Below the pieces are notes generated by a model. The model was not told the DNA's origin, ran no database searches, and saw only the letters and a program-made list of their open reading frames with translations. This document shows, piece by piece, positions 2,271-19,999 of a DNA stretch of 64,000 nt. The DNA comes from a bacterium. GTDB taxonomy: Bacteria; Sysuimicrobiota; Sysuimicrobiia; Sysuimicrobiales; Segetimicrobiaceae. Within the stretch, counting starts at the first letter, position 1; the number at the start of each line of letters is the position of its first letter. The DNA is taken from assembly GCA_035308905.1 (NCBI GenBank), contig DATGFS010000042.1, forward strand, positions 3,093-67,092, given 5' to 3'. A program made the translations under genes and the position numbers.

Positions 2271-3280
2271 TGCTGCGTCTTCCGCCGTTCGTGTACCTCG
2301 CGCCGCGCACCTTGGAAAAGGCGATCGGCTTCCTCGGCGAGACCGCCCCCGACGGTATGCCGGTCGCCGGCGGCACGGACCTCTATCCGAACATGAAGCG
2401 CCGGCAGTTCGAGCCGAAGACGCTCGTGGGGCTGCGCGGCATCCCCGAGTTGCGGCGGCTCGCCGGCGATCCGGACCGCGGGATGACCGTGGGCGCGTGT
2501 GTGACCCTGACCCGCCTCGCCGCCGACGCCGGCATCGCGGACCGATATCGCGCCCTGGCGCTTGCGGCCGGCGCCGTGAGCACGCCGCCGCTTCGCAACA
2601 TGGGCACGATCGGCGGCAACCTCTGCCTCGACACGCGGTGCAACTATTACAATCAGACCTTTCACTGGCGTAAGTCGATCGGCTTCTGCATGAAGAAGGA
2701 CGGCGACATCTGTCTGGTGGCGCCCGGCAGCCCGCGCTGCTGGGCGATCTCCTCGACCGACACGGCGCCCGCCGCGATCGCCCTCGACGCGCGGCTCCGG
2801 CTCGTCGGACCGGGCGGCGAGCGGACCGTCCCGGCCGCCGAGTTCTACCGAGACGACGGAATGCAGTACCTCGCCAAATCCCCGGAGGAGCTGCTGGTCG
2901 AGGTGATCCTGCCGCCGGCCGACGGGTGGCGCTCGACCTATTGGAAGCTGCGGCGGCGCGGGTCGTTCGATTTTCCCATTCTCGGCGTTGCGGCCGCGCT
3001 CCGATTCGAGCCTGACGGCCGCATCGCGGATGCGCGGATCGTGCTCGGCGGGGTCGCCTCGCATCCCGTGGAGGCCCCGCAGGCGGCGGCGCTCTTGCGC
3101 GGGCGGCATCCCGCCGAGGATCTCGTGGCGCACGCCGCGCAGGCGGCGGCCCAGCCGTCGCGGCCGCTCGACAACGCCGATTTGACGATCGGCTACCGCA
3201 AGAAGATGACGCGGGTCTATGTCGAGCGGGCCCTCCGGGAGCTGACCGGATTGTCGGTCGAAGGGGCGGCGGCCGGCTAA
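2270..3280 (+). CDS. FAD-binding subunit of xanthine dehydrogenase family molybdoenzyme (CoxM/XdhB-like)
   Basis: MLRLPPFVYLAPRTLEKAIGFL…AGGTDLYPNMK…GTIGGNLC: FAD_binding_5 / CO-dehydrogenase flavoprotein motifs; translationally coupled to the upstream large subunit. Confidence 0.8.
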   Translation: MLRLPPFVYLAPRTLEKAIGFLGETAPDGMPVAGGTDLYPNMKRRQFEPKTLVGLRGIPELRRLAGDPDRGMTVGACVTLTRLAADAGIADRYRALALAAGAVSTPPLRNMGTIGGNLCLDTRCNYYNQTFHWRKSIGFCMKKDGDICLVAPGSPRCWAISSTDTAPAAIALDARLRLVGPGGERTVPAAEFYRDDGMQYLAKSPEELLVEVILPPADGWRSTYWKLRRRGSFDFPILGVAAALRFEPDGRIADARIVLGGVASHPVEAPQAAALLRGRHPAEDLVAHAAQAAAQPSRPLDNADLTIGYRKKMTRVYVERALRELTGLSVEGAAAG

Positions 3281-3585
3281 TATTCGGGCGGCGCGTAGAC
3301 GTTGACGGTGACGAGCGGGTCTCCACCGGTGTTGCGGATTTCGTGATGCTCGCCGGCTTCGATGAGCAGGAGGTGTCCCGTCTCGATCGGCACCGTTCGC
3401 CGCTCGACGGTCGCCTCACCGCGGCCCGCGATGACGTAGAGCCACTTATCCGCGCCGGCGTGGACGTTGTCGTCGCCGCCGGTGGACTGACCGGGCTTGA
3501 GCACCATCGTCGCCGCCTGCGATCGGGATGTCCCGGCCACCACATCGAAGAATCCCTTTGCAGCGTTTGCGCGCACCGTCTTCAT
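3277..3585 (-). CDS. Cupin domain protein
   Basis: MKTVRANAAKGFFDVV…GEATVERRTVPIETGHLLLIEAGEHHEIRNTGGDPLVTVNVYAPPEY: conserved cupin barrel motifs; start chosen at the internal Met of a longer ORF. Confidence 0.6.
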   Translation of the reverse strand: MKTVRANAAKGFFDVVAGTSRSQAATMVLKPGQSTGGDDNVHAGADKWLYVIAGRGEATVERRTVPIETGHLLLIEAGEHHEIRNTGGDPLVTVNVYAPPEY

Positions 3586-3752
3586 CGCGTCTCCGCCGAG
3601 GTCCGACGTCTTCAAGGGATGTTTCCGCGGGTCCGATTTGCCGTCCGGATAATCCCTTCCGCATGACGAGGCCGCTCTCCGGCCGTTGTAGAATGAAATC
3701 GCGACGTGGACGGCGGCCCCTGCGAACGGCGGCCGCGGCATGGAGGTGGCGT

Positions 3753-4874
3753 GTGGACCGGGCCCTACGGACGCCGCTGTGTGATCTTCTTCATATCGAC
3801 TACCCGATCATCCAGTCCGGCATGGGGAATGTCGCCGGTCCCGACCTCGTGGCCGAGGTGGCAAAGGCGGGCGGACTGGGCATCTTGGCCGGGCTCGGCG
3901 TTCCGCCCGACGAGCTGAGCCGGCGCATCCGGCAGGTGCGCGAGCTGACCGATCGTCCTTTCGGCGTCAATCTCTGGCTGCACACCGAACTGCGGCCGCC
4001 CGTCGATCCGGCGACCATTCCGGGCGAGACCGTGGCCGCCGTGCAGGGCACGCTCAATCGGTTCCGTGGGCGCCTCGGAGTGCCCGCGACCGACGCGCGT
4101 CCGCCGCGGCTCCCCGACCTCGTGGATGCGCAGTTCGACGTGATCCTGGAAGAGCGCGTTCCGGTATGGAGCATTGGCTTGGGCAACCCCGGTCCCGAAA
4201 TGGTGCACCGCTGCCGCGAGCGCGGCGTCAAAGTCCTGGCGATGGCGGCGCGGCTCGACGACGCGAAGGCGCTCGAGCGGTCCGGGGTGGATGTGATCGT
4301 CGCTCAAGGCGGGGAGGCCGGGGGCCATCGGTCCACGTGGGTGAAAACCCGTACCGCGGAAGAGGCAAGCGTCGGCCTCGTAGCCCTGGTGCCTCAAATT
4401 GTCGACGCGGTCCGGGTTCCGGTCGTCGCGTCAGGCGGTATCGTTGACGGCCGTGGGCTCGTTGCCGCGCTCGCCCTCGGCGCGCAGGGGATTCTCCTCG
4501 GGACGCGATTCGTCGCGACGCGAGAATCAACGGCCCCGGAGTTTTACAAGCGGGCGCTCATCGAGCGCGACGGGAGCGCGACGTCGGTGACCGACGCGTT
4601 TACCGGTCTCTTCGCGCGGGCCCTGCGCAATTCGTACGCGGAGGAATACGCGCGGTCCGGCGCCCCGGTCCTGCCGGGTCTCGCCCAGCGGGCCGCCGCG
4701 CAGGACGTGTTCACCGCGTCCGCGGCGCGAGGGACCGGAGAGTACTTCCCGATGTTTGCGGGCCAGGGCGTCGGCTTGATTCGCGACCTGCCGGGCGCCG
4801 GCGACGTCGTGCGGACGATCGCCCAGGAGGCGCGGGCCGTGCTGGCGAGTCTTCGCGTCGAAGACCTTCCATAA
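3753..4874 (+). CDS. Nitronate monooxygenase (NMO / 2-nitropropane dioxygenase family, FMN-dependent)
   Basis: LLHIDYPIIQSGMGNVAGPDLVAEVAKAGGLGILAG…VVASGGIVDGRG: NMO signature; start ambiguous (GTG 3753 or ATG about 3693). Confidence 0.75.
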   Translation: MDRALRTPLCDLLHIDYPIIQSGMGNVAGPDLVAEVAKAGGLGILAGLGVPPDELSRRIRQVRELTDRPFGVNLWLHTELRPPVDPATIPGETVAAVQGTLNRFRGRLGVPATDARPPRLPDLVDAQFDVILEERVPVWSIGLGNPGPEMVHRCRERGVKVLAMAARLDDAKALERSGVDVIVAQGGEAGGHRSTWVKTRTAEEASVGLVALVPQIVDAVRVPVVASGGIVDGRGLVAALALGAQGILLGTRFVATRESTAPEFYKRALIERDGSATSVTDAFTGLFARALRNSYAEEYARSGAPVLPGLAQRAAAQDVFTASAARGTGEYFPMFAGQGVGLIRDLPGAGDVVRTIAQEARAVLASLRVEDLP

Positions 4875-4875
4875 T

Positions 4876-5922
4876 ATGGCGAAGTCCATGCCGGCCGACA
4901 AGAGGCCGGCCACCGTGAAATCAAAGCGCGAGTCGCCGCGAAGCGAGGAGCGTGCCGGCCGCCTGCCGGCGGACCGGCTGCTCGAGATGCTCTACTTCAT
5001 GCGCCTCCAGCGCGCCGTCGAGGACCGAGGCGTCAAACTCTACTACCAGGGCCGCATTCCGGGCGCGTACTTCACGGGGTGGGGCCACGAGGCGATCGTC
5101 GTCGGCGCCGCCGCGGCACTCGCTCCCGACGACCTGCTCGCCCCGATGCATCGCGATCTCGCCGCGTACATCATGCGCGGCATCACGGTCGGCGAAGTCT
5201 TTGCACAGTTCCTCGACCGCGAAGGCGGCCCGACGCGGGGGCGCGACGGCAACGTCCACATGGGCGACCCGCGCCGCGGGATTCTGCCGTTCATCAGCCA
5301 CATGGCGGCCTCCGTGCCGGTCGCGGCAGGCATGGCGCTCGCGTGCCGGCAGCGCGGCGAAGCCCGCGTCGTCCTGACCTTTTTTGGCGACGGCGCGACG
5401 AGCACGGGCGCATGGCACGAAGGCGTCAACTTCGCCGCGGTGTTCCGGCTGCCGGTCGTCCTCGTGCTCGAGAACAACCAGTACGCGTACTCGACGCCGC
5501 TCGACCGGCAGACCGCGGCGCAGGCGTTCGTCGACAAGGCCGCGGGATACGGGATCCCGGGCGTGGCGGTTGACGGCAACGACGTGCTGGCGGTCCACGA
5601 GGCAGCGGCGGCGGCGGTGGTGCGCGCGCGGGACGGGGCGGGTCCAACGCTCATCGAGTGCCGCACGCTCCGCGTCCGCGGGCACAGCGAAGCCGACAAG
5701 TTCTCATACGTCCCGAAGGCCCTGCTGGAGGAGTGGGCCGCCCGGGACCCGATCGTGGCGTTCGAGGAGCGGCTGCGGGCCTGGGGCGTGCTCAGCGCCG
5801 AGATCGACGAGGCGATGCAGTTCCGGGTCGCGCAGGACGTCGAGGACGGTCTCGCCTGGGCGGAAGCGAGCCCCGAGCCGGATCCGGCCACGGTTACGCA
5901 CGGCGTGTACGCCGAAGAATGA
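4876..5922 (+). CDS. Thiamine-diphosphate-dependent 2-oxoacid dehydrogenase E1 component, alpha subunit
   Basis: YYQGRIPGAYFTGWGHEA…FFGDGATSTGAWHEGVNFAAV…ENNQYAYSTP: TPP-binding E1 alpha motifs. Confidence 0.85.
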   Translation: MAKSMPADKRPATVKSKRESPRSEERAGRLPADRLLEMLYFMRLQRAVEDRGVKLYYQGRIPGAYFTGWGHEAIVVGAAAALAPDDLLAPMHRDLAAYIMRGITVGEVFAQFLDREGGPTRGRDGNVHMGDPRRGILPFISHMAASVPVAAGMALACRQRGEARVVLTFFGDGATSTGAWHEGVNFAAVFRLPVVLVLENNQYAYSTPLDRQTAAQAFVDKAAGYGIPGVAVDGNDVLAVHEAAAAAVVRARDGAGPTLIECRTLRVRGHSEADKFSYVPKALLEEWAARDPIVAFEERLRAWGVLSAEIDEAMQFRVAQDVEDGLAWAEASPEPDPATVTHGVYAEE

Positions 5923-5974
5923 CGGACGGGGCGGCGCGGCCGGCCGGGACCGCGCGGCCGCGGAAGGAGCGGCG

Positions 5975-6949
5975 GTGGCGCAACTGACGTATCTCGAGGC
6001 GATCCGCGAAGGGCTTCGCGCGGAGATGCGGCGCGACCCCCGCGTGTTCGTGCTGGGCGAGGACATCGGCGTCTATGGCGGCGCGTTCAAGATCACCGAG
6101 GGGTTCCTCGACGAGTTTGGTCCGTGGCGGGTCATCGATGCGCCGCTCGCGGAAACCGCCAACGTCGGCGCCGGGATCGGCGCGGCGGTGATGGGGATGC
6201 GGCCGGTCGTCGAGATGCAGTTCGCGGATTTCGTCACGGACGCGTTCACCCAGGTCGTGAACATGGCGGCCAAGTACCACTGGCGGACACGGATGCCGCT
6301 GCCGCTCGTCCTGCGCATGCCGTACGGCGGCGACGTCAAGGGCGGCCCGTTCCATTCGCAGTGCATGGAGGCGTGGTTCGCGCACACGCCCGGCCTCAAG
6401 GTCGTGGCTCCCGCGTTCGCCGAGGACGCGAAGGGCCTGCTCGTCGCCGCGATTCGCGATCCGAACCCCGTGATGTATTTCGAGCACAAGCACCTCTACC
6501 GCTTCCGGCGGGAGGAGGTGCCCGACGGCGAGTACGCCACGCCGATCGGGCGCGCCCGACTGGTCCGCGAGGGGACCGCGCTGTCCGTGATCTCGTACGG
6601 GTGGATGCTCCACAAATGTCTGGAGGCGGCCGGTCTCGCCGCGGCGGACGGCATCGCGGCGGAGGTGCTCGATCTGCGCACGCTCGCGCCGCTCGATCGC
6701 GATGCGATTCTCACGTCGGTGCGCAAGACCGGCAAGGCGCTCATCGTGCACGAGGCGTCGCGGACCGGCGGCATCGGCGGCGAGATCGCCGCGCTGATCG
6801 CCGAAGAGGCCTTCGACTCGCTGGACGGCCCGGTCATCCGTCTGGCGAGCGAAGACACACCGGTGCCGCACAACACCGGCCTCGAGGCGGCGTTTCAGCC
6901 GACGGTCGCGGAGATCGCGGACGCGATGCACCGGCTGGCCGCGTACTGA
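5975..6949 (+). CDS. 2-oxoacid dehydrogenase E1 component, beta subunit
   Basis: GTG start 7 nt after AAGGAGC; MAQLTYLEAIREGL…VFVLGEDIGVYGGAFKITEGF…: transketolase-like E1 beta. Confidence 0.85.
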   Translation: MAQLTYLEAIREGLRAEMRRDPRVFVLGEDIGVYGGAFKITEGFLDEFGPWRVIDAPLAETANVGAGIGAAVMGMRPVVEMQFADFVTDAFTQVVNMAAKYHWRTRMPLPLVLRMPYGGDVKGGPFHSQCMEAWFAHTPGLKVVAPAFAEDAKGLLVAAIRDPNPVMYFEHKHLYRFRREEVPDGEYATPIGRARLVREGTALSVISYGWMLHKCLEAAGLAAADGIAAEVLDLRTLAPLDRDAILTSVRKTGKALIVHEASRTGGIGGEIAALIAEEAFDSLDGPVIRLASEDTPVPHNTGLEAAFQPTVAEIADAMHRLAAY

Positions 6950-7978: not shown

Positions 7979-9154
7979 TCAGTCCGGCGCCGGTCGCGGC
8001 TCGAGCACCTCCCCGCCGGCGATGGTCAGCACCGGTACGAGCCGCCGGCGTCCCGTCATCGTCCGTCCCGTCACATCCACGTACTCGAAGGCGCCGGTCC
8101 GGTCGTCGAGCACCGTGACGTCGGCCGGCGAACCCGGACGCAGCGTGCCGAGGTCGGGGCGGCCGATCGCGCGCGCCGGCGCGGACGTCGCCGCCGCGAT
8201 CACCCGCTCGAGCGGCATGCCGAGGCTCAGCAATTTGGACATCGTGGTCGGCAGATCATAGGCCGGGCCGTCGATGCACAGGGCGTGGACGTCGCTGCTG
8301 ATCACGTCCGGCAGGAACCCTTGAGCGAGGCACGCCTCGGCGCTTTCGAACGAGAAGCTTCCCATGCCGTGCCCGATGTCGATGACGACGCCGCGCTCCC
8401 GCGCTTCCCACAATTCCGGCAGGATGCGGCCCGTGACGCCGGGGTCGACCGTCGGGCCGTTCGGGAACGGCCGGAAGGCGTGGGTCAGAATGTCGCCCTT
8501 CCGCAGCAAGGGCAGGACCTCGCGCCGCGTCGGCGGCGGGTTGTCGGTGTGCACCATCATCCGGACGCCGAGCGCCTCTGCCGCCTGAAGGGTATGCTGC
8601 AGCGGCGGCAGCCCCCGGCCTTCCCCCGCGATGAGCCCCAGCCGTACTTTCATGCCGACGATGAGATCGCGGTGCTCGTGGCCGACGCGCACCGCTTCGT
8701 GCACGTTGAGCAGCCGCAGATCGATGGACTCGCCGACCATCACGCGCCGCGAGAACGCGAAGATGCCGGCAAAGCTGATGTTGAGAAACGGCAGCACCCG
8801 GACCTGCGCCCGCTCGATCAGGTGCCGGCGGAATCCCGGGAAATTACCGGCCCCGCTGCTGCCGGCGTCCACGTGCGTCGTCACGCCCGAGGCCGCCGAC
8901 AGCGCGTCCGGATCGACGCCGAGGGAGGTGCCGCCCCAATAGACGTGCGTGTGCAGATCGATCAGGCCGGGGGTGACGAGCCCGCTCCGGACGTCGATCG
9001 TGCGCCGGGCCCGCTCGTGCGGCAGCGAGGGTGCCACCGCGGCGATCCGTCCGCCGGCGATGGCCACGTCGGCCCTCCGCGGGCCCGCCTCGTCGCCGCC
9101 GGCGGCGGGATCGAGCACCGTCCCGCCGCTCAGCAGCAGATCATAGTCCGGCAC
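7979..9154 (-). CDS. Amidohydrolase family metal-dependent hydrolase (deacetylase/dihydroorotase-like)
   Basis: GLIDLHTHVYWGG…HVDAGSSGAGNF…: amidohydrolase HxH and downstream metal ligands. Confidence 0.7.
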   Translation of the reverse strand: MPDYDLLLSGGTVLDPAAGGDEAGPRRADVAIAGGRIAAVAPSLPHERARRTIDVRSGLVTPGLIDLHTHVYWGGTSLGVDPDALSAASGVTTHVDAGSSGAGNFPGFRRHLIERAQVRVLPFLNISFAGIFAFSRRVMVGESIDLRLLNVHEAVRVGHEHRDLIVGMKVRLGLIAGEGRGLPPLQHTLQAAEALGVRMMVHTDNPPPTRREVLPLLRKGDILTHAFRPFPNGPTVDPGVTGRILPELWEARERGVVIDIGHGMGSFSFESAEACLAQGFLPDVISSDVHALCIDGPAYDLPTTMSKLLSLGMPLERVIAAATSAPARAIGRPDLGTLRPGSPADVTVLDDRTGAFEYVDVTGRTMTGRRRLVPVLTIAGGEVLEPRPAPD

Positions 9155-9876: not shown

Positions 9877-11469
9877 ATGGACTTGTCGCTCGACATCCCC
9901 GACGCGTTCAACGTCACGACCGCGTTCGTCGACCATAACCTCGAGACGGGCCGGGAACGCGCGGTGGCGATCCACGCGGACGATCGCCGCATCTCCTACG
10001 GCGAACTCGCCGCGCAGGTCAACCGCGCCGGGAACGCGCTGCGCGGGCTCGGCGTCCGGCCGGAGGAGCGGGTCTTTCTGCTCCTGCTCGATTCCCCGGA
10101 ATTCGCCTATCTGTTCTGGGGCGCGATCCGGATCGGCGCGGTGCCGGTCCCGACGAACACGGCGTTGCGGTCCCAGGACTATGCGTACATGCTGCGCGAC
10201 AGCCGCGCGCGCGTCCTGGTCGTCAGCGACGCGCTCCTTCCGGCCGTCGAGCCGGCGCTGCGGGACGCGCCGGATCTGCGCCACGTCGTGGTCGCCGGGA
10301 CGAACGCGGTGCCGGCCGTGCCCGGGCCCGCCCGGCACGCTCTCGCCGATCTGCTGTCGGCGGCGGACGATCGGCTCGCGCCGGCGCCGACCCACCGCGA
10401 CGAGCCGGCGTTCTGGTTGTGGAGCAGCGGGAGCACCGGCGCGCCGAAAGGCACCGTGCACCTGCACCACGACATGCTGTGGGCCGCGGAGCTGTACGGG
10501 CGGGGCGTGCTCGGGATCGAGCCCGACGACGTGTGCCTGTCGATCGCGAAGCTGTATTTCGCCTACGGCCTCGGCAACGGACTCTACTTTCCCCTGCGCG
10601 TCGGCGCGTCGACCGTGCTGTTTCCCGGCCGCTTCGACCCGCCGACGTACTTCGGGCTGATCGAGCGCCACCGGCCGACGCTGTTCTTCGGCGTGCCCAC
10701 GGCATATGCCGCGATGCTCGCCGCGGACGGCCCGAAGAGCCTCGGCGCGGTGCGGCGGTGTGTCTCGGCCGGCGAGCCGCTGCCGGCGGCGATCTTTACG
10801 CGGTGGAAAGAGCGGTTCGGGGTCGAGATCCTGGACGGGATCGGGTCGACCGAGGCCCTGCACATCTACATCAGCAACCGGCCCGGACGCGTGCGCCCCG
10901 GCAGCAGCGGCGAGGTGGTCCCGGGATATGAGGTGCGGATCGTGGACGAGGGCGGTCGCGACCTGCCGCCCGGCGAAATGGGCGACCTGCTCGTGCGCGG
11001 TGACAGCGTTGCCGCCTATTACTGGAACAAGCACGCGCAGACCCGGCGGACGTTCGCGGGCGAGTGGTTCCGGAGCGGCGACAAGTACTATCGCGACGAC
11101 GACGATTACTACTGGTACTGCGGCCGTTCGGACGACATGCTCAAAGCGGGCGGACAGTGGGTGTCCCCCGCGGAGGTCGAAGCGACGCTGATCCAGCACC
11201 CCGCGGTGCTCGAGTGCGGGGTCGTCGGCTGCGCGGACGCGGACGAACTGGTCAAGCCCTACGCCTTCGTCGTTCTGAAGGCCGATCAGACCGGGTCGGA
11301 CGCGCTCGCGCGCGAGATTCAGGCGTTCGTCCGCGACAAGATCGCGGCGTTCAAGTATCCGCGGTGGATCGAGTTCGTCCCGGACCTGCCGAAGACCGCC
11401 ACAGGCAAGATTCAGCGGTTCCGGCTGCGCGAACGGCTGTCGCCGCCGGCGGCCTCCGCTTCATCGTAG
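9877..11469 (+). CDS. Benzoate-CoA ligase family aryl-CoA ligase (AMP-forming)
   Basis: WSSGSTGAPKG (AMP-binding box I), YGLGNG, GDKYYRDDDDYYWYCGRSDDMLK, PKTATGKIQR. Confidence 0.8.
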   Translation: MDLSLDIPDAFNVTTAFVDHNLETGRERAVAIHADDRRISYGELAAQVNRAGNALRGLGVRPEERVFLLLLDSPEFAYLFWGAIRIGAVPVPTNTALRSQDYAYMLRDSRARVLVVSDALLPAVEPALRDAPDLRHVVVAGTNAVPAVPGPARHALADLLSAADDRLAPAPTHRDEPAFWLWSSGSTGAPKGTVHLHHDMLWAAELYGRGVLGIEPDDVCLSIAKLYFAYGLGNGLYFPLRVGASTVLFPGRFDPPTYFGLIERHRPTLFFGVPTAYAAMLAADGPKSLGAVRRCVSAGEPLPAAIFTRWKERFGVEILDGIGSTEALHIYISNRPGRVRPGSSGEVVPGYEVRIVDEGGRDLPPGEMGDLLVRGDSVAAYYWNKHAQTRRTFAGEWFRSGDKYYRDDDDYYWYCGRSDDMLKAGGQWVSPAEVEATLIQHPAVLECGVVGCADADELVKPYAFVVLKADQTGSDALAREIQAFVRDKIAAFKYPRWIEFVPDLPKTATGKIQRFRLRERLSPPAASASS

Positions 11470-11486
11470 ACACTGGAGGGGACCCC

Positions 11487-12266
11487 ATGGGAGAGATGAT
11501 CAGCCTGGAGCGCGAAGGCGCCGTCGGCGTGATCTCGCTGCACCGCGCACCCGCCAACGCCTACAATCCGCAGTTCGCCGGCGAGTTCCAAGCGGCGGTC
11601 GACGGCGCGCGCGACGATCCCGCCGTGCGGGCGGTGATCGTGCGGAGCACCCTGCCGAAGTTTTTCTCCGCCGGGGCCGACGTGAAGTGGTTCGCCGGGT
11701 CGACGCTCGAGGACAAGGTCATGTTCATCACGCACATGCACGAGGTGCTGCGCCGCGTCGAGACGACCCCCAAGGTGTTCATCGCGGCGATTGCCGGGCA
11801 CTGCCTCGGCGGAGGCATGGAAATTGCGCTGGCGTGCGACCTGCGGTTCGCCGCCGCGGGGGCGTACGGGCTCGGCCAGCCCGAGATCTCGCTCGGCATC
11901 ATCCCGGGAAACGGCGGGACGCAGCGGCTGCCGCGCCTGATCGGCAAGAGCCGCGCGCTCGACCTGATGATTACCGGACGATCGGTCTCGCCCGACGAGG
12001 CGCTCGCGATCGGGCTCGTCGACCGCGTGTTCCCCGCGGAGGAGTTGTTCGCCAAAACGGCCGCGTACGCCGACGGACTGGCCAACGGCGCCGCGGTGGC
12101 CGTGGGGTTGATCAAGCTCACGGTCAACCGGGGGCTCGAGATGGCGCTCGACGATGCGCTGGCCTACGAACGGGAGGCGCTGTTCCGGGCGTTCATCACC
12201 GAGGACGGGGTGGAGGGCGTGCGCGCGTTCTCGGAGCGGCGGCCGGCGCAGTTCAAGGGGCGGTAG
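11487..12266 (+). CDS. Enoyl-CoA hydratase/isomerase (crotonase) family protein
   Basis: AGADVKWF…AAIAGHCLGGGMEIALACDLRFAA: crotonase oxyanion-hole motifs; RBS GGAGGGG upstream. Confidence 0.8.
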   Translation: MGEMISLEREGAVGVISLHRAPANAYNPQFAGEFQAAVDGARDDPAVRAVIVRSTLPKFFSAGADVKWFAGSTLEDKVMFITHMHEVLRRVETTPKVFIAAIAGHCLGGGMEIALACDLRFAAAGAYGLGQPEISLGIIPGNGGTQRLPRLIGKSRALDLMITGRSVSPDEALAIGLVDRVFPAEELFAKTAAYADGLANGAAVAVGLIKLTVNRGLEMALDDALAYEREALFRAFITEDGVEGVRAFSERRPAQFKGR

Positions 12267-13134
12267 ATCCCGCGGGCGCGTTCCGGATGAACTGGTACTC
12301 GGCGGCGTCGCAGACCGGCTCGTAGCCGATGCGCTGATAGATCCGGTTGGACGTCGGGTTCGTCAGATCGGTGTAGAGCATGCAGAAGCGGCGGCCCTGT
12401 TCCAGCAGCCGCCGGCTGAGCTCCGCCACGCACGCCGTCCCATAGCCGTGATTCCGAAACTCCGGCGGTGTGTAGACGGGGCCGAGCTTGATGCCGTGCC
12501 GGGTCGTTCCGCCGTATCCCGCGACGCATCGCGGACCGGCGTCGTCCCAGAGCACGAAGCCTTCGCCGGGACTGCCGAGCCGCGTGTTCAGCACGGTCTC
12601 CGCTTCGCCGGCGGGACGGTTCCCTTCTCCGAATGCCTCTGTGCCGAAGGCGCGCAGCCAGTCGAGCAGCAGCGGGCGGTCCGCGTCTTCGGCCGGGCGG
12701 AGGCGGCCCGGGATGGCCGGCACCGGCCGGACGGCGTCGAGGCGGTGGATCCGCTCGTGCAGCGCGAGGCGGCTCGGCTCGCCCGTGAGCCGCTGCCAGG
12801 CCGCGACGAACTCCGATGCGACCGGATCGGGTGCGTGCACGCCGGGCGGCGTGGGCCGCAGCGTGGCGGCGTCTTCGGCGAGCGCGCGGACGGCGCCAGG
12901 CCGGGTGGTCTGCGACACGACGAGCCGGTACAGCGAGGTCATCATCGCCGCGCCGGCGATCTCGCCGCGATCGAGTGCCGCGGCCAGATACACATCCTCG
13001 GCCTCGGCCGGATCGCGCGCGGCCAGGCGCGCCGGAATTCCGAGCAGGAGGTTGTGACACGCCTCGTCGCGGAGCAGAAACGGCTCGACGGCGTCGAGAA
13101 ACGCCCGCGGCGTGCCGTAGCGAACGACGTTCAT
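12253..13134 (-). CDS. GNAT family N-acetyltransferase (two-domain)
   Basis: C-terminal acetyl-CoA motif RRHGIKLGPVYTPPEFRNHGYGTACVAEL…; start ATG overlaps the paaX stop (ATGA). Confidence 0.6.
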   Translation of the reverse strand: MNVVRYGTPRAFLDAVEPFLLRDEACHNLLLGIPARLAARDPAEAEDVYLAAALDRGEIAGAAMMTSLYRLVVSQTTRPGAVRALAEDAATLRPTPPGVHAPDPVASEFVAAWQRLTGEPSRLALHERIHRLDAVRPVPAIPGRLRPAEDADRPLLLDWLRAFGTEAFGEGNRPAGEAETVLNTRLGSPGEGFVLWDDAGPRCVAGYGGTTRHGIKLGPVYTPPEFRNHGYGTACVAELSRRLLEQGRRFCMLYTDLTNPTSNRIYQRIGYEPVCDAAEYQFIRNAPAGSTAP

Positions 13135-14087
13135 CGGCGTGCGGCCGCGCGTCCCATCACGCGCGCGGCGAACCGGTCGGCCCGCGGCGCGAGCAGGGCG
13201 TACGTCCGGCGAAACAGCGCCGCCGCCTCCCGGTCGGGACGCCGCGACGGCAGAAGCCGGTCCGGAAGTCCCGGGTCCACGAACAGGAACTTGCGGTACT
13301 CGTGGACGAGCCGGATCTTCTCGGCGAAGCACGCGTCGTCGGCGATGGCGCCGGCGAGTATCCGCCGGCGCAGCGACGCGGCGCGCGGCCGGGTCGCCGT
13401 GATGAACCGGCGGTACTGCGCGGCGATGCGGTCCAGATTCCAGCAGCGTTCGGCGAGCGCCCGGTCGTCCGCCGGACCGAGGCTTCGCGCGTCGAAGAGC
13501 GCGACCGCGCCGTCGAGTCTGTGCGCCGCGCTCAACGCGCGCAGCACGCCGGCCAGATCATGCGTGGTCACCCACGTGCCGCGGGACAGCGGCCCCAAAC
13601 CGAGCCAGGCCAGTTCGCGCCGAAGCCGGTCCCGGGCCGCCCGCCGCGCCTCCGGAATGACGTAAGTGAAGAGCCGCCAGCGTCCGTCCCACGCCTCCGC
13701 GGTCGTGCGGTACACTCGCCGCACGCCTTGTTCCAGGCGAAGCGCGCCGGCGGGGGTGAGCGAGTAGAACGCCCGCCGGCCGCCGCGGCGGCGGCTGAGC
13801 CACCCGCGGCGGGTCATGCGCGACAGCGCGGCGCGGACCGCGCGCGGTGTGAGCCCGAGCGGCGCCATCAGGCCGATCAGAGTGGCGGCGCCGATCTCGT
13901 CGCAGCGCGCACGGACGGTGTCGCCCCACACCGTCACGAGCAGCGACCGGGCGCTGCCGGCGGACCGCCTGCCCGGCGGACTCGCCCGCCGCCATGAAAT
14001 TGCGGCCGGCCGGGGGATGCCTGCCGCCCGCCGGCCGGACCGTCGATCCGGCACGCGATCGATCATGCGCCGCCTTTCACGGGGCAT
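13131..14087 (-). CDS. paaX: PaaX family transcriptional repressor of phenylacetate catabolism
   Basis: Winged-helix N-terminus (SLLVTVWGDTV…) plus PaaX C-terminal domain; divergent from paaA across an AT-rich region. Confidence 0.75.
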   Translation of the reverse strand: MPRERRRMIDRVPDRRSGRRAAGIPRPAAISWRRASPPGRRSAGSARSLLVTVWGDTVRARCDEIGAATLIGLMAPLGLTPRAVRAALSRMTRRGWLSRRRGGRRAFYSLTPAGALRLEQGVRRVYRTTAEAWDGRWRLFTYVIPEARRAARDRLRRELAWLGLGPLSRGTWVTTHDLAGVLRALSAAHRLDGAVALFDARSLGPADDRALAERCWNLDRIAAQYRRFITATRPRAASLRRRILAGAIADDACFAEKIRLVHEYRKFLFVDPGLPDRLLPSRRPDREAAALFRRTYALLAPRADRFAARVMGRAAARR

Positions 14088-14205
14088 CGTTGTGGTATAA
14101 TAATTATACACGCTATTCACGTCGTTCGTGCAAAAATCGTAGTATATTAGCCGGGCCTCCTCCGCGGATCTCCGCGGCGGGCGGGGCCGGGCGCGGAGGT
14201 CGACG
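14088..14205. promoter_or_regulatory. AT-rich divergent paaX/paaA control region with extended -10 (TGgTATAAT, 14093-14101) and palindromes
   Basis: Only strongly AT-rich stretch for kilobases; palindrome TATAATAATTATA (14096-14108) and CACG-N5-CGTG (14118-14130). Confidence 0.45.
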
Positions 14206-15138
14206 GTGGGCACGCCGACGGACGAACAGATCGTCGAGCGCATCCGGCAGGGACACATCATCGAGACGCCCGCCGAGATGAGCGATGACTACCGGCGCAC
14301 GCTCATCCACATCCTCACCGTGTCCGCCGACACCGAAATGATCAGCGCCCCGAGCTACTACACCGCGGCCAAGGACTCGCCGTCGATGAACAACCTCATC
14401 TCGGCGCTCGCGATCATCCAGGACGAGTTGAGCCACGCCCACATCGGATACCGCATTCTTCAAGATCTCGGCGTGGACACGGAGACGCTGATCTACGACC
14501 GCGCGCCGACGGCGTTCAAGCACCCGTACGCGTTCGACGTGCCGCTGCGCTCCTGGGTCGAGCTGATCGTCGCCAACGCGTTCTACGACCGCGCGGGCTT
14601 CGTGCTGCTCGGCGACGTGTACCGGCACTGCAGTTACGGGCCGTGGCGGCGCGCGCTGGCCAAAGTCGACAAGGAGGAGAATTTCCATCTGCGCCACGGG
14701 GAGAACGGGATGCGCCGGCTTGCCTCGGGCGGCGGGCGGGACGACGTCCAGCGCGCGATCGATTGGATGTTCCCGATGACGGTCGAGTGGTTCGGTCTCC
14801 CGGACACCCTCAAGACCCACGGGCGCCAGATCGCCTACAAGCTGAAGGGCAGCACCAACGACCAACTGCGCCAGCAGTGGCTGCGGACCGCGGTGCCGCT
14901 GTGCGAGGGCCTCGGCTTCACGGTGCCGGCGCATCACGAGCAGGCAACCGACACCTACGTGCTCGACTATCCGCTGCCGGTCGACTTCGACGAAGGCGAG
15001 CGGCGGTGGCTGATGGACCGGCCGATCACGTGGGACGAGGTGCTGGTGCGCTGGAAGCTCCGGGGGCCGGGCAACGGGATGCTGGTCGACATGTTGCAGC
15101 GCGGCCGCCGGCAGATGCGCGCGCTGTCGAGGCACTGA
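14206..15138 (+). CDS. paaA: 1,2-phenylacetyl-CoA epoxidase catalytic subunit PaaA
   Basis: Di-iron ferritin-like motifs (…DELSHAHIGYRIL…ENFHLRHGE…); GTG start after GGAGG. Confidence 0.85.
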   Translation: MGTPTDEQIVERIRQGHIIETPAEMSDDYRRTLIHILTVSADTEMISAPSYYTAAKDSPSMNNLISALAIIQDELSHAHIGYRILQDLGVDTETLIYDRAPTAFKHPYAFDVPLRSWVELIVANAFYDRAGFVLLGDVYRHCSYGPWRRALAKVDKEENFHLRHGENGMRRLASGGGRDDVQRAIDWMFPMTVEWFGLPDTLKTHGRQIAYKLKGSTNDQLRQQWLRTAVPLCEGLGFTVPAHHEQATDTYVLDYPLPVDFDEGERRWLMDRPITWDEVLVRWKLRGPGNGMLVDMLQRGRRQMRALSRH

Positions 15139-15140
15139 CG

Positions 15141-15506
15141 ATGGCGGTGGAGTCGCCGGTCGAGCGGACGTCAGGCGGGGCGGCGGCCCCGGAGCCGGTG
15201 ACGCCGGAACAGGTGCTGGCGGCGATGCGGGACGTCGCCGACCCGGAGTGGCCGGTCAGCATCGTCGACATGGGCCTCGTCTGCGGGGTGGCCGTTGAGG
15301 ACGGCGTCGTCCGCGTCACGCTCACCTTTACGTCGACCGCGTGTCCGTGCATGGAGATGATCCAGGACGACGTGCGGGAGCGCCTGCGCCGGCTGCCCGG
15401 CGTCCGCGACGTCGTGTTTGCGATCACGTGGGATCCGGTGTGGACGAAGGCACGGCTGAGCGACGCCGCCCGGCTGCAGTTCCGCCGCTGGGGCGTCTCC
15501 GTCTGA
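15141..15506 (+). CDS. paaD: PaaD N-terminal (DUF59/MIP18-like) domain protein; first half of a split PaaD
   Basis: VADPEWPVSIVDMGLV…TLTFTSTACPCMEM…WDPVWTKARLSDAARLQF aligns with E. coli PaaD residues about 1-110. Confidence 0.7.
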   Translation: MAVESPVERTSGGAAAPEPVTPEQVLAAMRDVADPEWPVSIVDMGLVCGVAVEDGVVRVTLTFTSTACPCMEMIQDDVRERLRRLPGVRDVVFAITWDPVWTKARLSDAARLQFRRWGVSV

Positions 15507-15733
15507 TGCACACGATCGGCGACGAGCCCGTCTACGAGGTCTTCGCCCGGCGCGTGGAAGGCGAGCCGCTTCGCCACGTGGGATCGGTCGCCGCGCCCGG
15601 CGACGCGCTGGCGCGCGTCTACGCACGCAGCATCTACGACGAGGAATCGTGGCTCGAGATGTACGTCGTTCCGCGGCGCGCGATTATCGCGGTCGGCGAC
15701 GTGCGCGACGAAGCGGTCGACGCGCATGCGTGA
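15506..15733 (+). CDS. paaB: 1,2-phenylacetyl-CoA epoxidase subunit PaaB
   Basis: VYEVFARRVEGEPLRHVGSV…ARSIYDEESW: PaaB family; ATG overlaps the preceding TGA (TGATG). Confidence 0.8.
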   Translation: MHTIGDEPVYEVFARRVEGEPLRHVGSVAAPGDALARVYARSIYDEESWLEMYVVPRRAIIAVGDVRDEAVDAHA

Positions 15734-15739
15734 CCGCCG

Positions 15740-16561
15740 GTGAGCGCGCCGTCCCCTGAGGGGACACTCCTGGACCGGCCGTCGGCGCTTCCGGGCGGCT
15801 GTGTGGCGCCGCTCGTCGATCTCGTCACGGCGCTCGCGGACAACAAGCACGCGCTGGGACTCCGGTACGCGGAATGGTGCAGCAGCGGCCCGACGATCGA
15901 GGCCGGGGTCGCGGCCACCGCGATGGCGCAGGACGAACTGGGCCACGCGCGCGTGCTCTACGGCCTGCTCGAAGAGCTGCCGGGCGCCCCGCGGCGGTCG
16001 GAGCACGAGTGGTCGGCCGCGGACGCCCGGACCGTGGCGTTCGTCGACCGCGCGTTCGCGGGCTGGCCGCAGCTGATCGTCGCCAACCTGATGCTTGATC
16101 GGGTGCTGGCCACGGTCCTCGAGGCGGCGCTCGACTCGCGCTACCTGCCGCTCCGGCAGCGGGCACGAAAAATCATCGAAGAGGAACGCTATCACGCGAT
16201 TCACGGGCAGAGCTGGCTCGCCCAGCTCGCCACGGAGGGGCCGGAGGTGCGCGCGGAGCTGGCCGCGGCGCTGCGCGACATCTGGAGTGACGCGCTCTGC
16301 TGGTTCGGCCGCGGAGACGGCGGAGCGCTCGGCACGCTGGTCGACGCGGGCGTGCTCGGCGCGGCCGGGGATGCGCTTCGCCGCCGCTTCCTCGCACAGC
16401 TCGCGCCGGTTCTCGCCGCCGCGGGCGTCCCGGCGCCGCTGCGCGGTGCCGGCCGGCAGGCGGCCGGCAACCATGAAATCGAAAGGGGCGCAGGCTGGGA
16501 GCCGTCGGAGCCGCTGCCGTGGGGCCGCTGGGACGAACGCGCGAGGAGGGTGAGGCCGTGA
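15740..16561 (+). CDS. paaC: 1,2-phenylacetyl-CoA epoxidase subunit PaaC
   Basis: Ferritin-like PaaC motifs (MAQDELGHARVLYGLLEEL…EEERYHAIHGQSW). Confidence 0.8.
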   Translation: MSAPSPEGTLLDRPSALPGGCVAPLVDLVTALADNKHALGLRYAEWCSSGPTIEAGVAATAMAQDELGHARVLYGLLEELPGAPRRSEHEWSAADARTVAFVDRAFAGWPQLIVANLMLDRVLATVLEAALDSRYLPLRQRARKIIEEERYHAIHGQSWLAQLATEGPEVRAELAAALRDIWSDALCWFGRGDGGALGTLVDAGVLGAAGDALRRRFLAQLAPVLAAAGVPAPLRGAGRQAAGNHEIERGAGWEPSEPLPWGRWDERARRVRP

Positions 16562-16785
16562 CCGGCCGTGAGGGCGCGCGCCCGGACGGGGCCGGCGCAT
16601 CCGCGCCCGCCGCGGGGGCCGTGCCGGAGTGCCCCTTCTGCGGCTCGCATGAGACGGAGCTCATGAGCCTCTTCGGTTCGTCTGCGCTCACCTCGCAGTA
16701 CTACTGCCGCGGCTGCCGCAGCGCGTTCGAGCAGGTGAAATGGGGCACCCCGCCGCCGCCCCCCCCTTCCAGGCGGGATTCCTGA
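16558..16785 (+). CDS. paaD: PaaD C-terminal zinc-ribbon domain protein; second half of a split PaaD
   Basis: CPFCGSHETELMSLFGSSALTSQYYCRGCRSAFEQVKW matches the PaaD C-terminal Cys4 ribbon (CPRC…ISEFGS…YRCDSCREPFDYFK); GTG start overlaps the paaC stop, RBS GAGGAGG. Confidence 0.6.
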   Translation: MTGREGARPDGAGASAPAAGAVPECPFCGSHETELMSLFGSSALTSQYYCRGCRSAFEQVKWGTPPPPPPSRRDS

Positions 16786-16799
16786 TCGGAGCGGACCTC

Positions 16800-17714
16800 G
16801 TGTCGAAGGTGATGCCGCTCCGCGACGCCGTGTCGCAGTACGCGCGCGACGGCGCGGTCATCGCGATGGGCACGGGGCTCGAGTCGTGCATTCCCTTCGC
16901 GGCGGGACACGAGATCATCCGGCAGCGCCGGCGCGATCTGACGCTCGTCGGCCCGATCTCGGACATCCTGTTCGACCAGCTCATCGGCGCCGGATGCGTC
17001 GCGCGCGTGATCGCGGCGTGGGTCGGCAACGTCGGGGCCGGGATCGCGTACAATTTCCGCCGCGCCGTCGAGGAGCAGATCCCGCGGCCGCTCGCGATGG
17101 AAGATCACTCAAACCTGACGGTTGCGCTCGCCCTCGAGGCGGCGGCCCGCGGGGTCCCGTTTCTGCCGTCGCGGACGGTCCTCGGCAGCGAGATCCTGCG
17201 CGGCCACGAGCGCCTCAGGGAGATGACCTGCCCGTTTACCGGCGAGCGCCTCCTCGGGGTCGGGGCCCTCGAGCTCGACCTCGCGATCCTGCACGTGCCG
17301 CGGTGCGATCGCGGCGGGAACGCGCACCTGTGGGGGAACCTCGGCGTCACGCTCGAGGCGGCGCGCGCGGCGCGGCACGTCGTGCTCACGTGCGAGGAGC
17401 TGGTCGACGAGACGGTGATCCGCAGCGATCCCAACCGGACGCTCATCCCGGGGTTTCTGGTCGGCGCGGTGTCGGTCGTGCCGTACGGCTCGCATCCCTC
17501 GCCGACGCAGGGGTACGTCAACCGCGACGACCGGTTCTACGACGAGTACCACGCCGAGACCAAGACGCGCGAGGGATTCCTCGGCTGGCTCGACCGCATG
17601 GTGGCGGGAACGCCCGACCACGCGGCGTACGTGGCGCGGCTTGGGGCGAGCCGGGTCGAGAGCCTGCGTCCCCGGACGGCGCGCCTCGCCGCCCCGGTCG
17701 ACTACGGGCTGTGA
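16800..17714 (+). CDS. CoA-transferase subunit A (glutaconate/3-oxoacid CoA-transferase family)
   Basis: N-terminus VSKVMPLRDAVSQYARDGAVIAMG resembles GctA; start ambiguous (GTG 16800, GTG 16809 or ATG 16812). Confidence 0.7.
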   Translation: MSKVMPLRDAVSQYARDGAVIAMGTGLESCIPFAAGHEIIRQRRRDLTLVGPISDILFDQLIGAGCVARVIAAWVGNVGAGIAYNFRRAVEEQIPRPLAMEDHSNLTVALALEAAARGVPFLPSRTVLGSEILRGHERLREMTCPFTGERLLGVGALELDLAILHVPRCDRGGNAHLWGNLGVTLEAARAARHVVLTCEELVDETVIRSDPNRTLIPGFLVGAVSVVPYGSHPSPTQGYVNRDDRFYDEYHAETKTREGFLGWLDRMVAGTPDHAAYVARLGASRVESLRPRTARLAAPVDYGL

Positions 17715-18484
17715 TGCGCGCGGAGGCGCCGGCCGCCACGCGGCGTCAGATCATGGTGGTCGCGGCCGCCCGGCAGATTCGCGACACGGAGATCGTCTTC
17801 GTCGGCATGCGCCTGCCGCTCTTGGGCTTTGCCGTGGCCAAAGCGACCCACGCGCCGCGCGCGGTGGGGCTGTTCGAGAACGGGGTGATCCGAGACACGC
17901 CCCCGGCCGGCGCGCTCATTACGATGGGCGACCCGCCGAATATCGCCGGCGCGGTGATGTGCACGACCCTGCTCGACGTGATGAGCCACCTCGAGCGCGG
18001 CCGCGTCGACGTGGGGTTCCTCGGCGGCGCGCAAGTAGACCGGTTCGGCAATCTGAACACCACCTGGGTCGAGGAGGGCGGAAGGCGTGTGCGCCTGCCG
18101 GGCAGCGGCGGGGCGGCCGATATCGCGGCGCTGTCGCGCCGGACCGTGGTGATCATGCGGCACGAACTGCGGCGTTTTCCCGAGCGCGTCGGCTATCTGA
18201 CGTCGCCGGGATACGGCAGCGGAGGGGCGTGGCGCCGCGAGGCGGGGCTCCCGCGGGGCGGCCCCGCCCGCGTGATCACGAGCCTCGCCGTCATGGGGTT
18301 CGATCCGGCGTCGGGCGAGATGGTGCTGGAGAGCGTGCACCCGGGGGTGACGATCGGCGAGGTGCGCGCGCACACGGGCTGGGATCTGCGGGCCGCGGCG
18401 CGGCCGGATACGACGGCGGTGCCGACCGCGGAGGAACTCGCCGTGCTGCGGCGGTTCGATCCGGACGGCGCGTGGACGGGATAG
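17714..18484 (+). CDS. CoA-transferase subunit B
   Basis: Paired with subunit A (TGATG overlap); conserved …GSGGAADIAA… region. Confidence 0.7.
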   Translation: MRAEAPAATRRQIMVVAAARQIRDTEIVFVGMRLPLLGFAVAKATHAPRAVGLFENGVIRDTPPAGALITMGDPPNIAGAVMCTTLLDVMSHLERGRVDVGFLGGAQVDRFGNLNTTWVEEGGRRVRLPGSGGAADIAALSRRTVVIMRHELRRFPERVGYLTSPGYGSGGAWRREAGLPRGGPARVITSLAVMGFDPASGEMVLESVHPGVTIGEVRAHTGWDLRAAARPDTTAVPTAEELAVLRRFDPDGAWTG

Positions 18485-18529: not shown

Positions 18530-19999
18530 ATGTCCGAAGCAACGGCACAGCAGGTGGCGACGTACAAGAACTTCATCGGCGGTGAATGGCGCGATTCCAA
18601 GGGCGGCGCCTTCGAGGTCCGCAGCCCGGCCAACGGGGAGCTGCTCTACCGGGCCCAGCGCTCCACGGTGGACGACGCGCAGGCCGCCGTTCGTGCGGCG
18701 CGCCAGGCCTTCGAGTCCACGGAGTGGCGCGAGGACACCGCGATGCGCACCGCGGCGTTGACGAAATTCTCCGAGGCGGTTCGCGTCCGCCACCAGGATC
18801 TCGCCACGCAGCTGACCCGCGAGAGCGGCAAGCCGTTCCCGATCAGCCGCGGCGAGGCCCTGCGGCTCGCCGAGACGATCAGCTACTACGCCGGCCTCGC
18901 GCGCTGGATCTTCGGCCGTTCGCAGATTCCGCAGCCCAACAGCATCAGCATGATCATGCGCGAGCCGGTCGGCGTGGTGGCGATCATCGTGCCGTGGAAC
19001 GCGCCGCTCGCGCTGCTGGCCCGGGCGATCGCGCCGGCGCTCGCCGCGGGCAACGCCGTGATCGTCAAGCCGGCGAGCTACACCGCGGGCTCCACCGTCG
19101 AGCTCGGCCGCATCGTCGAGGGCATCGAGGAGTTTCCGAAGGGCATCGTCAACATCGTGACCGGCCCCGGCGAACCCGTCGGCGCCGAGCTGGCGCGCCA
19201 CGACGACGTGGACATGGTCTCGTTCACCGGGGACACGTCGACCGGACGCGAGATCATGCGGCTCGCCTCCGGCAACCTCAAGAAGATCTCACTCGAGCTC
19301 GGCGGCAAGTCGCCGACGATTGTGTTCGCGGACTCCAACTTCGACCGGGCGATTCGCGGCGCGATCAACGCCGCCTCTTTCTACAACGCCGGGCAGATCT
19401 GCATCGCCGGGACGCGCGTGCTGGTCGAGGAGAGCGTGCACGGCCAGTTCGTGTCGCGGATCCAGGAGATGGTTCCCAAGATGAAGGTCGGGCCCGGGTG
19501 GGAGAAGGGCGTCGAAGTCGGCCCGGTGATCTCGGCGGCGCAGATGGAGAAAGTCACGGGGTTTATCGAAGCCGGCAAGAAAGAGGCGCGCCTCCTCGTC
19601 GGCGGGCAGCGCCTCACCGACGGCGACTTGGCCAAGGGCTACTTCCTCGCGCCGACGGTCTTCGACGAGATGTCGCCGGACGCGACGATCGCGCAGGAAG
19701 AGATCTTCGGCCCGGTGATGGGCATCACGACGTTCAAGGACGTGGACGACGCGATTCGGATCGCCAACCACACGCGCTACGGCCTCGTGGCCGCGGTGTG
19801 GACGCGGGACATCAACAAGGCGATGAAGATCGCGATGCGCGTGCGCGCCGGGTCCGTGTGGATCAACACCTTCGGCAAGATGTACCAGTCCACCGAGATG
19901 GGCGGCTTCAAGCAGTCCGGTCTGGGCCGCCAGTACGGTCTCGAAGGTCTGTTTGAATATACGGAGCTAAAGCACGTCAACATTCAGATCGAAAAGTAG
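18530..19999 (+). CDS. NAD(P)-dependent aldehyde dehydrogenase
   Basis: ELGGKSP, catalytic Cys (GQICIAGTR), EEIFGPV motifs. Confidence 0.85.
   Translation: MSEATAQQVATYKNFIGGEWRDSKGGAFEVRSPANGELLYRAQRSTVDDAQAAVRAARQAFESTEWREDTAMRTAALTKFSEAVRVRHQDLATQLTRESGKPFPISRGEALRLAETISYYAGLARWIFGRSQIPQPNSISMIMREPVGVVAIIVPWNAPLALLARAIAPALAAGNAVIVKPASYTAGSTVELGRIVEGIEEFPKGIVNIVTGPGEPVGAELARHDDVDMVSFTGDTSTGREIMRLASGNLKKISLELGGKSPTIVFADSNFDRAIRGAINAASFYNAGQICIAGTRVLVEESVHGQFVSRIQEMVPKMKVGPGWEKGVEVGPVISAAQMEKVTGFIEAGKKEARLLVGGQRLTDGDLAKGYFLAPTVFDEMSPDATIAQEEIFGPVMGITTFKDVDDAIRIANHTRYGLVAAVWTRDINKAMKIAMRVRAGSVWINTFGKMYQSTEMGGFKQSGLGRQYGLEGLFEYTELKHVNIQIEK

Follow-up and report, generated by a model that had tools for sequence, protein, structure and literature searches.

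We find that counterparts of the two domains of PaaD, a component of phenylacetyl-coenzyme A (CoA) epoxidase that in Escherichia coli is a single chain composed of a DUF59 domain and a four-cysteine (Cys4) zinc ribbon, are encoded by two separate genes in a paaABC-like module of a bacterium of the Segetimicrobiaceae (Sysuimicrobiota; GenBank assembly GCA_035308905.1). The module is located in a 64,000-nucleotide (nt) stretch of contig DATGFS010000042.1 (positions 3,093 to 67,092 of the forward strand), the whole of which is referred to here as the window, and its five genes are arranged in the order paaA, DUF59, paaB, paaC, zinc ribbon (A-DUF59-B-C-Zn). In our judgment this is likely to be the standard and old architecture of a widespread PaaABC-like sister family of phenylacetyl-CoA epoxidase, in which the DUF59 protein and the ribbon protein represent separately encoded PaaD domains with an accessory function.

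PaaD Is Encoded in Two Pieces within a Five-Gene Module

According to the sequence and the list of open reading frames (ORFs), the five genes are on the plus strand and closely packed, with spacers of +2, −1, +6, and −4 nt. The features of the module are as follows.

14206–15138, plus strand: paaA-like di-iron oxygenase subunit, 310 aa (PF05138, 186 bits)
15141–15506, plus strand: DUF59 protein, 121 aa, counterpart of the PaaD N-terminal domain (PF01883, 76.6 bits; gathering threshold 23.5)
15506–15733, plus strand: paaB-like small subunit, 75 aa (PF06243, 37 bits; gathering threshold 27)
15740–16561, plus strand: paaC-like subunit, 273 aa (PF05138, 148 bits)
16543–16549, plus strand: GAGGAGG, Shine–Dalgarno-like sequence for the zinc-ribbon gene, 8 nt upstream of its GTG (read from the sequence)
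16558–16785, plus strand: stand-alone Cys4 zinc-ribbon protein, 75 aa, counterpart of the PaaD C-terminal domain (PF23451, Zn_ribbon_PaaD)

The PaaA-like protein is ~32% identical to PaaA of E. coli and scores 122.1 bits against TIGR02156, under the cut-off of 280; the PaaB-like and PaaC-like proteins are likewise under the cut-offs of their models (33.9 bits against 85.45 for TIGR02157 and 106 bits against 133.35 for TIGR02158, respectively). The DUF59 gene starts 2 nt past the paaA stop codon and its own stop codon shares 1 nt with the ATG of paaB. Its product matches positions 1–89 of the 146 positions of the PaaD model TIGR02159 (63.5 bits), and its best NCBIfam match is NF041868, a haloarchaeal DUF59-only PaaD model (89.9 bits; cut-off 180). 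The GTG of the ribbon gene (16558–16560) and the TGA of paaC (16559–16561) overlap as GTGA. The ribbon ORF matches profile positions 12–53 of 53 in PF23451 (57.4 bits, E = 1.1e-15; gathering threshold 27) and positions 104–144 of TIGR02159 (37.2 bits), and scores 31 bits against NF041869. Neither ORF reaches the whole-protein cut-off of TIGR02159, which is 108.15.

In a comparison with the paa cluster of E. coli K-12, the two ORFs together tile PaaD, and the match is far above chance. The DUF59 ORF aligns with residues ~13–113 of E. coli PaaD at 29% identity and keeps the Cys-Pro motif, TFTSTACP pairing with TPTYSGCP in the E. coli protein, and the ribbon ORF aligns with residues ~120–165 at 41% identity. 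The cysteines of the latter are arranged as CPFC-x21-CRGC and cover a span of 29 residues, the same as in E. coli PaaD. Because paaB and paaC lie between the two ORFs, which are 1052 nt apart, they do not form one ~165-aa polypeptide. A first-pass annotation made from the sequence alone had placed a DUF59-like PaaD N-terminal domain directly after paaA and the Cys4 segment of PaaD in a separate 75-aa ORF, with a GTG overlapping the paaC stop and a GAGGAGG ribosome-binding site, and had read the gene order as A-D(N)-B-C-D(C). The profile matches, the coordinates, and the alignments of both ORFs to the N-terminal and C-terminal parts of PaaD bear out this description.

The Ribbon ORF Is Conserved as a Gene of Its Own

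Spurious ORFs are common in GC-rich DNA, and the first-pass annotation had allowed that the 75-aa ORF might be the out-of-frame tail of paaC. Among the 68 related loci that have at least 400 bp of sequence past paaC, 67 contain the ribbon ORF after paaC at positions ranging from a 4-nt overlap to 1.7 kb downstream. Because the distance from paaC varies in this way among relatives, the ORF is not a tail of paaC. In 67/67 relatives the four cysteines are invariant, their span is fixed at 29 residues, and the sequence follows the motif C-P-[FW]-C-G-S-x2-[TV]-E-x4-F-G-x6-Q-Y-x-C-x2-C-x-[ST]-x-F-E. The ratio of nonsynonymous to synonymous substitution rates (dN/dS), calculated for a 39-codon core against close relatives, is 0.017–0.13, a sign of purifying selection on the ribbon. 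Gene calls made independently in close relatives include a 75-aa gene with the identical 4-nt overlap, and a crude gene caller based on the G+C content of third codon positions (GC3) picks 16558–16785 unaided (GC3 0.88). The conservation data rule out a chance open frame or paaC tail, a reading to which, given also the PF23451 match, we attach next to no credence, and on these sequence criteria the 75-aa ORF is a genuine gene.

An AlphaFold2 model of the ribbon protein has a three-stranded core with predicted local distance difference test scores of 79–89 and disordered termini. The best matches in a fold search of the PDB are classical zinc ribbons, all of them weak (E > 0.09), and a sequence search of the PDB with the ribbon returned nothing significant. 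The DUF59 half has solved relatives, including TTHB138, TM0487, and 3LNO.

The Split Order Is Widespread in Bacteria and Present in Haloarchaea

We recovered 80 genome loci with a PaaA-like protein, which is 54–95% identical to that of the window, and searched them by tblastn with the five window proteins. The order A-DUF59-B-C-Zn is found in essentially all 80 loci, so that the split proposed for the window extends to the related paa clusters. These loci come from metagenome-assembled genomes (MAGs) as well as isolates, among them Pyrinomonas methylaliphatogenes among the Acidobacteriota loci, and are labeled Chloroflexota, Armatimonadota, Acidobacteriota, Gemmatimonadota, Rubrobacter, Dormibacterota, Bipolaricaulota, and others. 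The same order is present on haloarchaeal plasmids (Halalkalicoccus, a Natrialbaceae archaeon, Haladaptatus, and Haloarcula) and on plasmid pHB5018c of Thermus thermophilus HB5018. All 120 DUF59 relatives among the matches listed are 78–139 aa in length and contain PF01883 only. When 1.84 billion proteins were searched with a profile of the ribbon, 948 cluster representatives matched at E ≤ 1e-3; of these, the best 150 are all stand-alone proteins of 50–133 aa. No fused PaaD is found among the 120 listed DUF59 relatives or the best 150 ribbon relatives.

The annotation of the ribbon gene varies among records. In T. thermophilus HB5018 the ribbon ORF (L090, 7971–8174) is without annotation, and an over-extended hydratase call in another frame (8041–8931) covers part of it; the ribbon gene of Haladaptatus (L088, ~5960–6140) is likewise unannotated in the RefSeq record. 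Elsewhere the protein is labeled "hypothetical protein," "transposase-like" (JGI), or, in UniRef, "PaaD-like zinc ribbon domain-containing protein." Variants of the module were also seen. An apparent fusion of PaaC and ribbon in L032 is no fusion, as a stop codon is present. In two related MAGs, L005 (~3174–4334) and L008 (~10370–11488), the ribbon ORF continues in frame without a stop into the CoA-transferase alpha gene, which would give a ribbon-CoA-transferase fusion product if translated through. Finally, a second, more divergent PaaB-like ORF is located between paaB and paaC in ~10 loci (L018, L020, L021, L025, L032, L035, L043, L044, L050, and L062).

Fused PaaD Is Nested among Split Forms

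Three architectures can be distinguished. Type (i), A-DUF59-B-C-Zn, is that of the window's family. Type (ii), A-B-C-DUF59-Zn, is an intermediate arrangement of haloarchaeal phenylacetate operons, with the PaaD halves encoded by separate but adjoining genes; it is found in Natribaculum longum (L091), where the DUF59 gene (5555–5953) and the ribbon gene (5944–6150) are in differing frames, and in N. luteum, where the layout is backed by independent gene calls. PaaA and PaaC of Natribaculum score 328 and 167 bits, respectively, enough to exceed the equivalog cut-offs of the canonical models. The best NCBIfam match of the Natribaculum ribbon is NF041869, a 56-position model named "subunit PaaE," and the split PaaD is therefore already represented in curated models under another name. 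Type (iii), A-B-C-D(fused)-E, is the canonical architecture and was sampled from E. coli, Pseudosulfitobacter, Ralstonia, and Embleya.

To relate these architectures we used a neighbor-joining tree of PaaA and PaaC in which each paralog roots the other and which was bootstrapped by a distance routine. The separation of PaaA from PaaC has 100% bootstrap support, and so does the fused-PaaD clade in both the PaaA and the PaaC part. The fused clade groups with Natribaculum at 100% (PaaA) and 86% (PaaC), and type (i) falls outside this group. Because the fused operons branch from within the split ones, a single fusion is a more parsimonious account than several separate fissions, and in the tree this nesting holds whether type (i) is a clade or a grade. 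The tree thus suggests that the split state is probably ancestral and that the single-chain PaaD of the E. coli type is probably a later fusion of two genes.

The first-pass annotation had instead suggested, as one of two readings, domain fission with gene shuffling in the epoxidase complex, a suggestion that is not supported for this genome or lineage in view of the occurrence of the same order in ~80 loci of many phyla and on haloarchaeal and Thermus plasmids, and of the nested position of the fused clade. If a full-length paaD had recently been split in the window's lineage and its DUF59 half then relocated, this would account for the fact that the two ORFs tile E. coli PaaD; however, the identical split and order over many phyla and two domains of life, the lack of a fused form among the relatives surveyed above, and the nesting of the fused operons make such a history extremely unlikely. 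The breadth of the split order and the tree nesting largely refute it.

Proposed Role of the Two Small Proteins

PaaD is the phenylacetate epoxidase component whose role is still unsettled: it is required in vivo, but the enzyme works without it in vitro; it is missing from the PaaABC(E) complexes that have been purified, and it has been proposed to aid maturation (PMC4498308, PMC9493321). E. coli PaaD resembles SufT-type maturation factors. By analogy, both small proteins of the module would be non-catalytic accessory factors for the PaaA/B/C oxygenase in vivo, probably helping to load metal into the di-iron subunit(s) or to assemble them. Synthesis of the DUF59 factor would directly follow that of PaaA, and translation of the ribbon would be coupled to that of PaaC via the GTGA overlap. 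Because the DUF59 gene follows paaA and the ribbon gene overlaps paaC, co-translational delivery to PaaA and PaaC, respectively, is suggested; operon order is generally linked to assembly order. As no PaaE is present, electrons would be supplied by a reductase or ferredoxin encoded elsewhere. The substrate is predicted to be an aryl-CoA, which we leave unnamed; a gene of the benzoate-CoA ligase family and a gene for a PaaX-like regulator adjoin the module.

Several points weigh against this interpretation. The putative maturation role is extrapolated from E. coli PaaD, and the metal of the Cys4 site could be zinc or iron. Monophyly of type (i) has a bootstrap value of only 33% for PaaA and 8% for PaaC, the polarity comes from a distance tree in which four fused operons and a single canonical operon from haloarchaea are sampled, and the result could be distorted by horizontal transfer. 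Lastly, the first-pass annotation had named a full-length PaaD elsewhere in the genome, together with a lack of expression of the small ORF, as evidence against a split; none is found within the 64-kb window, but a full-length PaaD or a PaaE could be encoded elsewhere in the genome, outside the window.

It is possible, as the first-pass annotation had also considered, that the ribbon is an independent accessory subunit rather than one piece of a two-piece PaaD. In another reading, the ribbon would be a stable structural subunit of the oxygenase that binds PaaC and works without the DUF59 protein, much as other enzymes of aromatic-acid metabolism have small Cys4 subunits; the fusion in E. coli would then only link two proteins serving one complex. 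The position of the ribbon gene agrees with this: it directly follows paaC in nearly every locus, often overlapping it, and stays by paaC regardless of whether the DUF59 gene adjoins it, as in type (ii), or is three genes off, as in the window's family. The weak fold matches include VdcD, the small zinc-ribbon subunit of a UbiD-type decarboxylase, and in L070 there is no stop codon between paaC and the ribbon. However, PaaD of E. coli is not recovered together with PaaABC on purification (PMC9493321), the fold matches all remain at the E values given above, and we do not rely on the fusion in L070 because its paaC is frameshifted in a nanopore MAG. On balance, we regard a structural ribbon subunit as rather unlikely and favor the accessory, maturation-type role.

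PaaC of Split-PaaD Systems Retains Di-Iron Ligand Positions

The di-iron ligands of PaaA are E42, E72, H75, D126, E155, and H158 in E. coli numbering, and canonical PaaC is a structural, iron-free subunit (PMC4498308). All six PaaA ligands are kept in the window and in 85–86 of 86 relatives. At the equivalent positions, PaaC of the window has K-E-H-D-E-H, retaining five of the six ligand positions, whereas E. coli PaaC has C-L-Q-D-A-H. Nearly all type (i) PaaC proteins have K-(E/D)-H-D-E-H and the type (ii) PaaC of Natribaculum has D-E-H-D-E-H, as against x-L-Q-x-x-H in the four fused-PaaD operons; the ligands are also lost from PaaC of two Rubrobacter loci (L044 and L067). Because the ligand positions are retained, PaaC may bind metal in split-PaaD systems.

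This raises a further scenario in which PaaC is metal-binding, the DUF59 protein partners PaaA, and the Cys4 protein partners PaaC as a metallochaperone or as a redox protein of the rubredoxin type, such that a two-centre oxygenase would be ancestral to the E. coli enzyme. We consider this scenario improbable as a whole. If it were true, the PaaC site would have been lost, the two helpers fused, and the PaaE reductase recruited on the way to the E. coli enzyme.

The Modules Lack a paaE Gene

A tblastn search with E. coli PaaE gave no match in the window or in any bacterial locus; over this search and the motif scans, the one sequence picked up was a small 2Fe-2S ferredoxin from a haloarchaeal locus. 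Motif scans together with tblastn identified no PaaE-type reductase within ~8 kb of the module in 84 bacterial loci. Among the neighboring ORFs, ten recurrent clusters characterized with Pfam comprise Tad pilus, ABC transporter, metallo-β-lactamase (MBL) hydrolase, luciferase-like, and other proteins but no reductase, with the limitation that this clustering is contaminated by antisense ORFs. The chromosome of T. thermophilus HB8 has a canonical-order paaABCD-paaZ operon that is also without paaE (PMC6651687), and the absence of paaE in cis is therefore not unique to the window's family.

The missing reductase would be explained if the Cys4 protein bound iron in a rubredoxin-like site and carried electrons to the di-iron centre in place of PaaE. 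The CPxCG first knuckle is also found in rubredoxins, and the 56-position model for haloarchaeal ribbons is called "subunit PaaE" in NCBIfam. On the other hand, in vitro, with PaaE as the source of electrons, the homologous domain of E. coli PaaD is not needed; haloarchaeal type (i) loci have a divergent 2Fe-2S ferredoxin gene adjoining a GNAT gene, beside the module, and still keep the ribbon; the ribbon has no match to the Pfam rubredoxin model at E ≤ 0.01, its best PDB folds being classical zinc ribbons; and the HB8 operon lacks paaE despite its canonical order. An electron-carrying ribbon is thus very unlikely, and we retain the proposal that electrons would come from a reductase or ferredoxin encoded elsewhere.

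Genes Surrounding the Module

The genes flanking the module in the window are as follows.

9877–11469, plus strand: benzoate-CoA ligase family enzyme (TIGR02262, 671 bits, above the cut-off of 375)
11496–12266, plus strand: enoyl-CoA hydratase/isomerase (crotonase), 34% identical to E. coli PaaF and 29% to PaaG, with only a generic crotonase match in NCBIfam
12253–13134: GNAT protein, 293 aa, with no NCBIfam match
13131–14261, minus strand: PaaX-like repressor, divergently transcribed (TIGR02277, 219 bits, under the cut-off of 264)
16740–18484, plus strand: CoA-transferase alpha and beta, beta at 17714–18484 (PF01144, 63.7 and 82.2 bits)
18530–19999, plus strand: aldehyde dehydrogenase (PF00171, 523 bits)

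In the mechanically derived ORF list, the ligase ORF and the PaaX-like ORF extend well beyond the N termini of their relatives. Relatives of the PaaX-like protein are 279–294 aa long and carry PF07848, PF20803, and PF08223, and the true start of the window's gene is probably internal. The longest ORF for CoA-transferase alpha, starting with the ATG at 16740, overlaps the final 46 nt of the ribbon gene. Because the alpha gene of relatives starts 15–19 nt past the ribbon stop, the window gene probably starts at a downstream GTG or ATG near 16801–16812. No homologs of PaaK, PaaH, PaaJ, or PaaI are found in the 64-kb window.

Among ~85 loci, a crotonase is encoded in the neighborhood of 34, an aldehyde dehydrogenase of 32, an AMP-forming ligase of 20, and a PaaK-like ligase of 7. 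In the loci labeled Dormibacterota or Chloroflexota (L053–L080), the module is surrounded by genes for Tad pilus proteins, pyrimidine nucleoside phosphorylase, and MntP, and no ligase, crotonase, or aldehyde dehydrogenase is found nearby. Because these modules sit among unrelated genes, the pathway context is not conserved.

Relation to Previous Work and Implications

A 2026 survey scored PaaD by PF01883 only, and earlier surveys took paaABCDE as a single stable order. In our literature searches on PaaD we came across no paper that describes the split, the interleaving of the genes, how widespread this arrangement is, or the likely origin of E. coli PaaD by fusion. Stand-alone PaaD ribbons are implicitly known to databases through PF23451, the UniRef name, and the haloarchaeal NCBIfam pair. 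In annotation pipelines, parts of the module receive generic labels and the ribbon gene is called hypothetical or is missed.

For a component as enigmatic as PaaD, the separate genes amount to a natural experiment in which each half can be studied alone for its partner and its metal. A further outcome is the definition of a PaaABC-like module that is widespread and has gone unannotated. It is found in Thermus, Chloroflexota, Acidobacteriota, Dormibacterota, and haloarchaea, has no PaaE, and has a PaaC that seems to be metal-competent.

Comparison with Known Systems

One resemblance, which we use as an analogy only, is to VdcD-type ribbon subunits. These are also three-stranded Cys4 ribbons of ~60–75 aa whose gene adjoins that of an aromatic-acid enzyme; however, the partner enzyme belongs to another family, and no sequence or fold score is significant (E > 0.5). 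The DUF59 protein shares PF01883 with SufT/DUF59 Fe-S factors and scores 86 and 76 bits against models of the TIGR02945/TIGR03406 type, near its scores against PaaD models, but these values are under the cut-offs of those models, and the window gene is in an oxygenase operon rather than a suf operon.

Compared with canonical PaaABC(D)E, the window proteins have the six di-iron ligands of PaaA, whereas PaaA, PaaB, and PaaC all stay below the scores required by the canonical models. Like the E. coli-type PaaD described by TIGR02159, the two small proteins combine a DUF59 domain containing Cys-Pro with a Cys4 ribbon of 29-residue span and are encoded together with paaA, paaB, and paaC; they differ from it in being the products of two genes with paaB and paaC in between and in not being followed by paaE. 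The haloarchaeal models NF041868 and NF041869 have cut-offs of 180 and 100, which are passed neither by the window proteins (89.9 and 31 bits) nor by the haloarchaeal type (i) members (105 and 37 bits). In the Natribaculum operon, to which these models belong, the order is A-B-C-DUF59-Zn with the two halves adjoining, and PaaA and PaaC group with those of the fused-PaaD operons. In common with the window, this operon has PaaD split into two genes, no FNR-type PaaE, and a PaaC in which the ligand positions are kept.

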